Source: Escherichia phage ECO103 4-12-1
DNA length: 64,000 nucleotides
Sequence record: OR844650
Reading direction: 5' to 3' (one strand)
Shown here in pieces: positions 54,131-55,505 of the stretch. The notes under the pieces are model-generated. The model saw nothing but the letters and a program-made list of their open reading frames with translations, made no database searches and had not been told where the DNA came from. Within the stretch, counting starts at the first letter, position 1; each line of letters starts with the position of its first letter. Position numbers and translations under genes: made by a program.

Positions 54131-54526
54131 TTAGTCTCCAACAAAACCTTGACGTGCAGCATAAGATGGTGCACCAGGCTCATTATAGTGTTGTACGCCT
54201 TCTTTGTCAATTGTTGGTCCCATACCTTCAGTTCCAAAACAACCTGCAATGGCTTCCAACACTTCTTCATCAGCAACTTCAGTACTTTCATCATTATATC
54301 GAATGTCAGACAAAATGTCACAGGCTTTTTGTAGTTTATCTACAATTTCTTTTTGGTCTTCACCAGATTTAATCTTATCAACAATATCAATAAGACATTT
54401 GGTAATATCCTTAAGAACATCAACTGCTACAACATCGGATTCAACTTCAACTGAAAAACTTTCGTCTTCATCTCTTCCGGTAATTTCGTCTAACGCTTCA
54501 ACTAGTTCACGATAATTATATTGCAT
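54131..54526 (-). CDS. acidic hypothetical protein
   Basis: 131-aa ORF, Asp/Glu-rich. Confidence 0.35.
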   Translation of the reverse strand: MQYNYRELVEALDEITGRDEDESFSVEVESDVVAVDVLKDITKCLIDIVDKIKSGEDQKEIVDKLQKACDILSDIRYNDESTEVADEEVLEAIAGCFGTEGMGPTIDKEGVQHYNEPGAPSYAARQGFVGD

Positions 54527-54527
54527 A

Positions 54528-55505
54528 TTATTTGTCTCCTAAAAATTTCTTGTATTTTTCTTGGAGACTTTCAAAAATATCTTCTACTTCTTCATCAGAA
54601 TCATCTTCCAAGTCAATGTTACCTTCAGGTGAATCATCTTCTTCACTTTCATTAACATTTAGTGGGTTATCTCCTAATGCAGTGCCTGGGAATTTTGGTT
54701 CAAATTTATGAACACGATTTTCGTTCCCTTCATTATCATAATACTCAGGTTCTGGACGATTGTCAAGATCTTCATCTACAACACGTCTCCAATAAAATTG
54801 ATTGCCTTTTGCAATTACAACAAAATGGTCACCTTCAACACCATTAGTCTTTAGTTGCCCATCACGAACGGCATCAGCTTCGGTTTCATATGGACCATAA
54901 TCAGTACTGTTAGATGGTTCTTCATCTTCAGAGATACTTAGATCTGGTAGAAATTGGGTATCTTTCATTTCTTTATCGGTAGCAGGATTACCCTCTACTG
55001 AAAAATCTTCGTCTTCTTCTTCGTTAATACCAGCAAGAGATAGCATACGACTAAAATCGAATTCTTCTTCAATAATTTCTTCTTCCTCATCGTCTTCTTC
55101 AACTGATTCTAGTTGAGGTTGACCACTAAGGTCAAGAGAAAAATCTTCTTCACCTTCTACACCTGGTTCTGAAAATTCAGCATCCATACTAACTTCATCT
55201 GTGTCAGCACCAAAATCACCAACATCAGCGGAAAGATCATCAACTGCCGCTGCTAGTGGGTCTTCAACTGAAGTTTCAATTCCACCAATTTCTTCTTCAG
55301 CACCAATAGAATCGAGATCTAGTGGAGCAATAGGTGGAAGAGATGGAGTCATAGACCCCATAGATGGTACTGGAGCAGCAACTACTGGGTCTTGACGTTC
55401 AGCTTGACCAGCAAGAGCTAACATACGTGATAGAGTTTCCAAATCATCAGATTCTAAACCTGCGATATCGATTTTAACTTGTGCTTCATTAATTTTTTTA
55501 GCCAT
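54528..55505 (-). CDS. highly acidic protein (Asp/Glu-rich, low complexity)
   Basis: 325 aa with long runs such as EEDDEEEEIIEEEFDF and DLEDDSDEEVEDIFE; function unknown. Confidence 0.4.
   Translation of the reverse strand: MAKKINEAQVKIDIAGLESDDLETLSRMLALAGQAERQDPVVAAPVPSMGSMTPSLPPIAPLDLDSIGAEEEIGGIETSVEDPLAAAVDDLSADVGDFGADTDEVSMDAEFSEPGVEGEEDFSLDLSGQPQLESVEEDDEEEEIIEEEFDFSRMLSLAGINEEEDEDFSVEGNPATDKEMKDTQFLPDLSISEDEEPSNSTDYGPYETEADAVRDGQLKTNGVEGDHFVVIAKGNQFYWRRVVDEDLDNRPEPEYYDNEGNENRVHKFEPKFPGTALGDNPLNVNESEEDDSPEGNIDLEDDSDEEVEDIFESLQEKYKKFLGDK

Follow-up and report, generated by a model that had tools for sequence, protein, structure and literature searches.

What are two extremely acidic proteins doing in a block of phage structural genes? 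The question is raised by two adjacent minus-strand genes at positions 54131 to 55505 of a 64,000-nucleotide stretch of Escherichia phage ECO103 4-12-1 (sequence record OR844650; hereafter, the window), which encode proteins of 325 and 131 amino acids (aa). An earlier note on this DNA, made from the sequence alone, proposed that they are either scaffold/internal proteins or DNA mimics that inhibit host nucleic-acid-binding defenses. Both proteins are already catalogued as virion components, and their family is uncharacterized in function. Our preferred answer, to which we assign a probability of roughly 0.55, is that both are protease-trimmed internal head proteins of a T4-lineage jumbo phage, which would be recruited to the prohead core and kept in the filled capsid.

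The two open reading frames (ORFs) are where the note had placed them, both on the minus strand: 54528..55505 encodes the 325-aa virion protein, which is acidic and mostly disordered, and 54131..54526 encodes the 131-aa virion protein, which is acidic as well. Each has a good Shine-Dalgarno sequence, AAGGA 11 nucleotides (nt) 5' of the ATG at 55505 for the longer protein and AGGAG 9-10 nt 5' of the ATG at 54526 for the shorter one. The computation of charge and isoelectric point (pI) that the note had called for confirmed its description. The 325-aa protein contains 29.2% Asp+Glu (D+E) and 6.5% Lys+Arg, with a net charge of -74 and a pI of 4.05; the 131-aa protein is also strongly acidic, with 25.2% D+E, a net charge of -21 and a pI of 4.10. 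Of the 43 window ORFs analyzed, none has a higher D+E fraction than these two, and the runners-up (21.7% and 20.2%) are both encoded in the same gene cluster as the acidic pair. The Asp/Glu runs that the note quoted from the 325-aa protein are both present, EEDDEEEEIIEEEFDF around aa 136-151 and DLEDDSDEEVEDIFE over aa 298-312. The note's view of this protein as dominated by low complexity holds for these runs and not for the protein as a whole, in which six conserved motifs or modules are separated by acidic linkers of variable length.

The phage is an Asteriusvirus jumbo coliphage, and its relatives are Asteriusvirus jumbo myophages of about 350 kb, members of the Rak2-like group. Over positions 53700-57100, the window matches Escherichia phage SHEFM2K at 100% identity and PBECO4, 121Q, phAPEC6, JP4, and others at 99.5-99.8%, and Asteriusvirus phages carry proteins that are 98.8-100% identical to the 325-aa protein. 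The latter belongs to the family of 121Q gp560, phAPEC6 gp267c, CBB_213, and RaK2 gp050 (PHROG 15988, E=7e-141), and the 131-aa protein to that of 121Q gp561, CBB_214, and RaK2 gp051 (PHROG 14971, E=3e-60). Both PHROG families are named "virion structural protein," and gp560 and gp561 are both annotated as "structural protein" in 121Q. Published mass spectrometry, the kind of evidence that the note had proposed as a check, places orthologs of both proteins in mature virions: gp267c was detected in phAPEC6 by 1 peptide with 4.9% coverage (PMC7247149), CBB_213 and CBB_214 were detected in CBB by 5 peptides and 1 peptide, respectively (PMC5259590), and RaK2 gp051 was identified by tandem mass spectrometry (PMC3622015). 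The phAPEC6 peptide was most likely IDIAGLESDDLETLSR (aa 12-27), as no other fully tryptic peptide would yield a coverage of 4.9%. For CBB_213, a similar deduction was ambiguous: no combination of peptides gives its coverage of 18.93% exactly, and the nearest three give 18.8-19.1%.

Acidity is a constant property of both families. Motif and charge counts were made on 99 homologs of the 325-aa protein and 13 of the 131-aa protein, and alignments comprised 36 of 101 homologs of the former and, for the N terminus of the latter, 12. All 99 homologs of the 325-aa protein are acidic (22-30% D+E, net charge from -42 to -87), as are all 13 homologs of the 131-aa protein (net charge from -15 to -23). 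On the other hand, the linkers vary; even phAPEC6 has a poly-Glu run that departs by one residue from that of the window. The conservation of charge together with the variability of the linkers points to selection on charge rather than on sequence. The distribution of the family is narrow: an exhaustive profile search of 1.84 billion representative proteins returned only 82 matches to the 325-aa family at E<=1e-3, none of which links it to a characterized family.

Between its acidic linkers, the 325-aa protein consists of distinct conserved parts. The leader MAKKINE (55485..55505, minus strand, as are all features of the two genes) ends in a putative cleavage site of the T4 gp21 type, I-N-E/A at aa 5-7, where the slash marks the presumed point of cleavage; E7 and A8 are invariant and N6 nearly so in the 36 aligned homologs, and the family consensus is M-x-K-K-I-N-E/A. 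It is followed by an N-terminal module of 29 residues, AQVKIDIAGLESDDLETLSRMLALAGQAE (aa 8-36; 55398..55484), which is defined by invariant columns, has the alignment consensus ...IDxxGLESxDLETLSRMLALAGQAE, and is predicted by AlphaFold2 to form a helix at aa 22-36. The RM-x-LAG motif of this module recurs as FDFSRMLSLAGINE at aa 149-162 (55020..55061), with F149, M154, L157, and A158 nearly invariant. At least two copies of RM-x-LAG are present in 81 of the 99 homologs, and the second copy is mostly followed by another [LIVM]-x-E site. Then come an LLPDLS motif at aa 185-191, a beta-alpha-beta-beta mini-domain of about 45 aa (54771..54908), and a linear motif, GTALGDNPL, at aa 274-282 (54660..54686), in which L277, G278, D279, and N280 are nearly invariant. 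The protein ends in an amphipathic helix, EVEDIFESLQEKYKKFLGDK (54531..54590), with a second putative site, I-F-E/S, at aa 310-312. The consensus of this helix is VEDIFESL..KY.KF, and a [LIVM]xE[SN][LI] pattern is found in the last 30 aa of 98 of the 99 homologs.

AlphaFold2, run on the 325-aa alignment, predicts a mostly non-helical and mostly disordered protein, with a mean predicted local distance difference test (pLDDT) score of 58 and values below 50 in the acidic stretches. Short helices are predicted at aa 22-36, 83-93, 151-157, and 307-322. The mini-domain (pLDDT 88-92 for aa 200-240) is the sole confidently folded part; its consensus is GPF..E..A......TNG.EG..F.V......FYW.R, with G204, P205, T220, N221, G222, F228, W239, and R241 invariant. 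It has no match in Pfam or the PDB and belongs to no described family; a resemblance to a permuted YegP/DUF1508 unit was considered, supported by no search, and dropped. The mini-domain is a mobile module: one homolog (P0071) has it in duplicate, a 62-aa protein contains it alone, and it is also found inside a 709-aa protein (its carriers being P0071, P0159, and P0176). Separate occurrences of the mini-domain, as well as of the N-terminal module and the LAG motif, were found in other acidic proteins from metagenomes.

The 131-aa protein is built along similar lines. Its leader of 10 residues, MQYNYRELVE (54497..54526), has M1 and Y3-E10 invariant in the 12 aligned homologs, and the N-terminal consensus is MxYNYRELVE/(A/S). 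AlphaFold2 (mean pLDDT 61) predicts an N-terminal helix, a helical hairpin at aa 29-53/58-82 with a pLDDT of about 80, and two disordered acidic linkers (below 50). At its C terminus is a conserved non-acidic motif, G.EGM.P....G.Q.Y....APSYAARQGFVG (54134..54235), in which P104, Y114, S121, G127, and F128 are invariant, also in distant orthologs.

Could such proteins be DNA mimics that titrate DNA-binding defenses, such as type I restriction-modification, and that are either ejected with the genome or made early? Their charge density (29% D+E and a net charge of -74 for the longer protein) equals that of classical mimics, their presence in virions makes delivery together with the DNA conceivable, and T4 IPI* is a precedent for a packaged anti-restriction protein (PMC3012670). 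Early expression of the 131-aa protein is possible, too, as a near-consensus sigma70 promoter (54766-54738) lies about 200 nt 5' of its gene. However, the structure prediction that the note had suggested for detecting B-DNA-like charge patterning yields disorder for both proteins and no rigid surface with DNA-like carboxylate spacing. Searches of Pfam, PDB sequences, and, by Foldseek, PDB structures found no Ocr, ArdA, or other mimic family. Moreover, the best-conserved parts of both proteins are non-acidic motifs and the mini-domain, which suggests docking to partner proteins, and the acidic genes sit in a block of structural genes, not among typical early anti-defense genes, with the family syntenic with structural genes in every relative examined. 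Only the charge and the conceivable delivery with the DNA favor mimicry, which we regard as improbable; the internal head protein explanation fits much better.

Homology searches gave no other lead. No Pfam family matched the full-length 325-aa protein at E<=0.1, Pfam searches with sub-regions gave nothing above threshold, and matches of the 131-aa protein in Pfam were all below threshold. Two of the latter were treated as noise: PF12699 (phiKZ_IP), with 13.7 bits against a cutoff of 27 (E=0.036), and a saposin match far below the cutoff. phiKZ_IP did not match the 325-aa protein at all. A profile search of the PDB found no match for the pair, and Foldseek found nothing in the PDB at E<=0.001 for either AlphaFold2 model; in BFVD, it found only two family members, followed by insignificant rhabdovirus phosphoproteins (E ~0.1).

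The feature that best connects the acidic pair with the phage head is found at their N termini. Within the first 10 residues, both proteins have a hydrophobic residue, any residue, and Glu, followed by Ala: INE7/A in the 325-aa protein and LVE10/A in the 131-aa protein. Leaders of the same kind open three neighboring proteins, of 184 aa (MKSKPQIDE/A), 178 aa (MNRLQQILTE/K), and 180 aa (MSILNE/M). An [LI]xE pattern that starts in the first 12 residues is present in five of the six genes at 54131-58723 and in three of the 36 other window ORFs (Fisher p=3.7e-4), and in none of the ORFs annotated as sheath, tube, or fiber. The leader sites occupy the same positions in orthologs from CBB, RaK2, and a Vibrio jumbo phage, and the leader is kept in 95 of 99 members of the 325-aa family (as [LIVM]xE[AS] in the first 12 aa) and in all 13 members of the 131-aa family.

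Head proteins of the close relative 121Q, among them the major capsid protein and the scaffold, which are known protease substrates, share this leader. The protein annotated as a T4 gp21-like protease (gp601) starts with MSSMIRE/W, the gp22-like scaffold (gp602), encoded next to the gene for the major capsid protein (MCP), with MSKLEKLLKE/S, and the T4 gp23-like MCP with MSQLLNE/S, in addition to an internal LTE43/S that parallels the cleavage of T4 gp23 after LTE65. The genes for gp599 (MLKDIFE/S) and gp600 (MANLKLLQE/A) occupy the position of T4 genes 67 and 68. The DIFES pentapeptide near the C terminus of the 325-aa protein also opens gp599, and SIFES occurs in T4 gp22. The gp600 protein (282 aa, pI 4.06, net charge -54; L009:5400-6248, outside the window), encoded between the portal and the gp21-like protease genes, is another acidic virion protein, unrelated to the acidic pair; it appears to correspond to phAPEC6 gp228c (5 virion peptides), to which it was matched by size and gene order only.

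In T4, leaders of this type belong to gp67 (MEGLIE/A), gp22 (MLKEQLIAE/A), gp21 (..LIE9/T), and gp24 (MAKINELLRE10/S), as well as to gp68; that of gp24 may be set beside the MAKKINE of the 325-aa protein. The first 10 aa of T4 internal protein IPIII suffice for capsid targeting, and its residues 8 and 10 govern processing (PMC9026906). The T4 protease removes 10 residues from gp24 and 9 from gp21 and cuts Alt at both termini (PMC9026906; PMC9958956), while gp22, gp67, and gp68 are degraded (PMC9026906; PMC9958956; PMC5694885). L8 and E10 of the 131-aa protein are in the exact register of the IPIII processing residues. The probable phAPEC6 virion peptide at aa 12-27 implies that the module after E7 is retained and that another potential site within it, GLE18/S, is not an obligatory cut.

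The reading that we prefer, internal head proteins, starts from observations made here or in the papers cited: the genes and the charge of their products, the disorder predicted for them, the conserved motifs, the detection in virions, and the leader that they share. We propose that the short leader would recruit both disordered polyanions into the assembling prohead core, where the 325-aa protein might dock through its aa 8-36 module and the repeated RM-x-LAG helices. A gp21-type prohead protease would then trim the 325-aa protein at INE7/A8 and probably at IFE312/S313, and the 131-aa protein at LVE10/A11, and the trimmed proteins would remain inside the DNA-filled capsid at modest copy number. 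Given that the linkers keep their charge and not their sequence, the functional element is probably a polyanionic chain that repels DNA and would be tethered by small folded or helical anchors. Such a chain could build or space the core during assembly, and it could contribute to a DNA-free axial inner body and leave with the DNA at infection. Extreme acidity has a precedent in the prohead core, as T4 gp67 has 44% D+E and a pI of 4.05. Inner bodies have been reported by bubblegram imaging in 121Q (PMC5646251) and in phAPEC6, where it measures 91 x 18 nm and where no homologs of phiKZ inner-body proteins were found (PMC7247149).

The note's scaffold/internal branch thus divides in two. Its internal part agrees with the virion orthologs and the conserved [LI]-x-E leaders. 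A pure scaffold that leaves the capsid does not: orthologs are present in mature virions, and a gp22-like scaffold is encoded separately. A classical gp22-type scaffold was rejected on the same grounds (gp602 adjoins the MCP gene) and because the 325-aa protein is mostly non-helical.

Several points weigh against our reading. The cluster at 54131-58723 was delimited after the leader pattern had been seen, and the motif is weak, with hydrophobic-x-Glu near the N terminus expected at a background of about 9% per protein. Cleavage by a gp21-type protease at INE7/A8, IFE312/S313, and LVE10/A11 is inferred, as are a location in the head rather than in the tail or neck and the role in the inner body. 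The low peptide counts (1 in phAPEC6) and the absence of both proteins from the JP4 virion proteome of 49 proteins (supplement of PMC12648861), a list that does include the neighboring 178-aa protein, speak against a major constituent of the inner body, although tryptic peptides suited to mass spectrometry make up only some 40% of the 325-aa protein. The gene block also holds tail sheath and tube genes, and sigma70-like promoters inside the acidic genes hint at a possible early synthesis of the 131-aa protein as well. Finally, neither protein has sequence homology to T4 core or internal proteins in Pfam or in the PDB search, and the 325-aa protein shows none to gp600, the other acidic head protein. 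Since the T4 internal proteins are themselves hypervariable, the missing homology would seem to weaken functional membership in this group rather than rule it out.

The gene neighborhood bears on this question from both sides. In the order of transcription, the minus-strand set starts with the tail sheath gene (cut by the end of the window), two tube-like genes, and a 364-aa structural gene, and continues with a gp4-like nuclease gene and ORFs of 184, 178, 180, 505, 325, 131, and 126 aa; these are followed by a 313-bp gap (53434-53746) and by genes for a MoxR-type ATPase, a metallopeptidase+vWA protein, and thymidylate synthase. The note had placed the acidic genes upstream of tail genes, which is true only in plus-strand coordinates; since the whole set is on the minus strand, they are transcriptionally 3' of the sheath, tube, and head-completion genes and directly 5' of the MoxR/vWA-metallopeptidase pair. 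The gene order is conserved in CBB (Mimasvirus), in RaK2 and phiKp_21 (Alcyoneusvirus), and in a Vibrio jumbo phage.

The acidic genes, the tube-like genes, and tail-completion genes lie together in a terminator-free run from 61117 to 53747. On the one hand, the sharing of strand and run with tail genes, along with a fiber gene block that adjoins, would suit a tail or neck component or a tail assembly factor, for example a chaperone that stays in the tail, or part of the hair-like fibers on the tails and capsids of CBB and phAPEC6; Rak2-like phages do bear unexplained whisker- or hair-like structures (PMC5259590; PMC7247149). On the other hand, the [LI]xE leader is present in the head proteins of the phage and lacking in every window ORF annotated as sheath, tube, or fiber, and the nearest gene of known role within this run, which the acidic genes follow, encodes a head-completion protein. 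A disordered chain with a net charge of -74 is also an unlikely building block for a fiber, and the phAPEC6 fibers seem to be trimeric and ordered at the base. We consider a tail or neck role unlikely.

The head-completion gene heads a cluster of small genes. Its product (58754..59182, minus strand) is a T4 gp4-like head completion nuclease with a TnsA-like N-terminal domain (PF08722, E=2e-16), annotated as such in 121Q (gp555). The three following genes with N-terminal [LI]-x-E leaders (184, 178, and 180 aa; 57059..58723, minus strand) include two that are annotated as structural in 121Q, and virions of JP4 and of phAPEC6 (as gp270c) contain the 178-aa protein. The names "Hsp70 heat shock protein" (PHROG 16152) and "RED-N domain" offered for the 180-aa protein (57059-57601), which has no Pfam match, look wrong, and the former was not used. 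Between these genes and the acidic pair is the gene for a 505-aa virion protein without the leader (55528..57045, minus strand; PHROG 16305), which was detected in phAPEC6 as gp268c by 6 peptides. The 505-aa protein has no Pfam match and contains an internal duplication (aa 9-97 versus aa 297-385; 32% identity, E=1e-11) and a weaker further copy.

On the other side of the acidic pair are the MoxR-type AAA+ ATPase (52108-53433, minus strand) and the DUF2201 metallopeptidase+vWA protein (50609-52033, minus strand), which resemble the gp24/gp25 pair of phage N4. The name "HNH endonuclease" (PHROG 1314) for the latter protein looks wrong, is not supported by Pfam, and was not used. The acidic proteins might be clients or adaptors of this pair, their Asp/Glu residues serving as ligands for the vWA metal site and the proteins being remodeled or cleaved during assembly, which would be compatible with an internal head location. 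Their adjacency to the MoxR-vWA genes is a conserved trait of the Asteriusvirus, Mimasvirus, and Alcyoneusvirus phages examined, as well as of the Vibrio jumbo phage; Iyer et al. proposed that such pairs are virion-assembly chaperones with peptidolytic processing (PMC7824862); and 6 peptides of the ATPase (19% coverage) were found in virions of phAPEC6 and 1 peptide of the vWA protein in those of JP4, which is unexpected for a chaperone pair apparently under sigma70-type promoters. However, the MoxR-vWA genes have signals of their own, namely two strong sigma70-like promoters within the 313-bp gap and terminators at 52088 and 50596, and the G+C content at third codon positions is 0.34 in the ATPase gene versus 0.15-0.18 in the acidic/structural cluster; thus, they look like a separate, probably earlier, transcription unit. 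Furthermore, the large PHROG families of such pairs are tied to N4-like phages, where the searches made found no homolog of the acidic proteins. We find a client relationship rather improbable.

Promoter-like sequences are concentrated at the end of the structural gene set. Near-consensus sigma70 promoters, with at least 11 of 12 hexamer matches, number 10 in the window (shuffled sequence gave a mean of 3.8 per whole window), and six of the 10 fall within 53603-54766, all on the minus strand. Two of these, at 54210-54182 and 53630-53603, are perfect. The sites are spread over the 3' part of the 325-aa gene, the genes for the 131-aa and 126-aa proteins, and the gap that precedes the MoxR ATPase gene, and they are partly conserved in ph0011 and RaK2. 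The cluster looks like the start of an early/middle unit (126-aa protein, MoxR, vWA, thymidylate synthase) that is embedded in the end of a structural operon. In addition, a promoter-like GTGACA-17-TATAAT at 54293-54321 (codons 69-78 of the 131-aa gene) has counterparts at this codon position in RaK2 and phiKp_21. Ahead of a conserved Asp, the encoded residue is Cys, Arg, or Ser, always with an NGT codon, so that the -35 hexamer GTGACA is kept, and an invariant Tyr-Asn is encoded by TAT AAT; this hints, in a small sample, at constraint at the nucleotide level as well as the protein level. Late timing could not be demonstrated with the T4 late-promoter motif TATAAATA, which is rarer than expected in the window (2 matches, against 10.4 from shuffled sequence); presumably, late transcription of this jumbo phage uses another signal.

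Elsewhere in the window are two giant plus-strand ORFs of 3333 aa (17165-27166) and 1841 aa (39616-45141). The former appears to correspond to phAPEC6 gp245, a virion protein of 382 kDa, to which it was matched by size only; the latter is the 121Q "long tail fiber proximal subunit." Several long antisense ORFs within 39616-45141 are probably artifacts of its composition.

A bolder version of the internal head protein explanation would take in the whole block at 54131-58723 (184, 178, 180, 505, 325, and 131 aa) as an inner-body/ejection set of the Rak2/121Q type, unrelated to that of phiKZ. In it, the acidic pair would form a DNA-excluding brush along the portal axis that organizes the spooling of the 350-kb genome and is expelled ahead of or with the DNA, and its charge could also decoy DNA-binding defenses. 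We offer this as a speculation that is unlikely as a whole. What the shared T4-style leader gives in any case is a short list of candidates for internal or ejected proteins, namely the five neighboring genes and 121Q gp599 and gp600. Its value lies in concrete candidates for the Rak2-type inner body, as nothing in these genomes resembles phiKZ inner-body proteins. Should the leader work as it does in T4, foreign proteins tagged with it might be packaged into a very large capsid. Otherwise, this is an ordinary case of a catalogued virion protein family with a narrow distribution.

How does the acidic pair compare with known systems? With the T4 core proteins gp67 and gp22, it shares extreme acidity (pI 4.58 for gp22; gp67 was described above), an [LI]xE within 10 residues, and a gp21-family protease encoded in the same phage, and fragments of gp67 and gp22 remain in the mature T4 head (PMC7697877; PMC9958956). 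Unlike genes 67 and 22, which lie between the portal and MCP genes, the genes for the acidic pair are about 60 kb away from that position, after a head-completion gene, and the T4 core-gene position is already held by gp599/gp600. There is no detectable sequence homology; the acidic proteins are much longer than gp67, are disordered rather than helical as gp22 is, and contain a folded mini-domain.

With T4 IPI, IPII, IPIII, and Alt, the acidic pair shares a short conserved leader that ends in a gp21 site and a mature part that is variable, and the 325-aa protein, for which cuts at both ends are proposed here, would resemble Alt in this respect. The T4 internal proteins are basic, folded, and DNA-associated, with about 360 copies, and the leader of IPIII is MKTYQEFIAE. 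In contrast, the acidic pair is strongly acidic, disordered, and apparently of low abundance, and the targeting by its leader is putative.

The comparison with the phiKZ group is also mixed. Bubblegrams of 121Q and phAPEC6 reveal an axial inner body like that of phiKZ, and phiKZ-like inner-body proteins are processed after Glu by a gp21-related protease (PMC5694885). However, the sites in that group are S/A/G-x-E, the propeptides of SPN3US often exceed 100 residues (PMC5694885), and PF12699 matches the 131-aa protein only far below its threshold and the 325-aa protein not at all. T7 Ocr and ArdA have a similar density of net negative charge, but they are compact, rigid, and typically early proteins, whereas the acidic proteins are predicted to be disordered, are encoded among structural genes, and occur in virions. 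By fold and family, then, the acidic pair does not belong with the DNA mimics, nor does it belong with phiKZ_IP or the classical scaffolds; in behavior it stands closest, without homology, to the acidic core proteins of T4 and to the T4 internal proteins that bear a capsid-targeting sequence.

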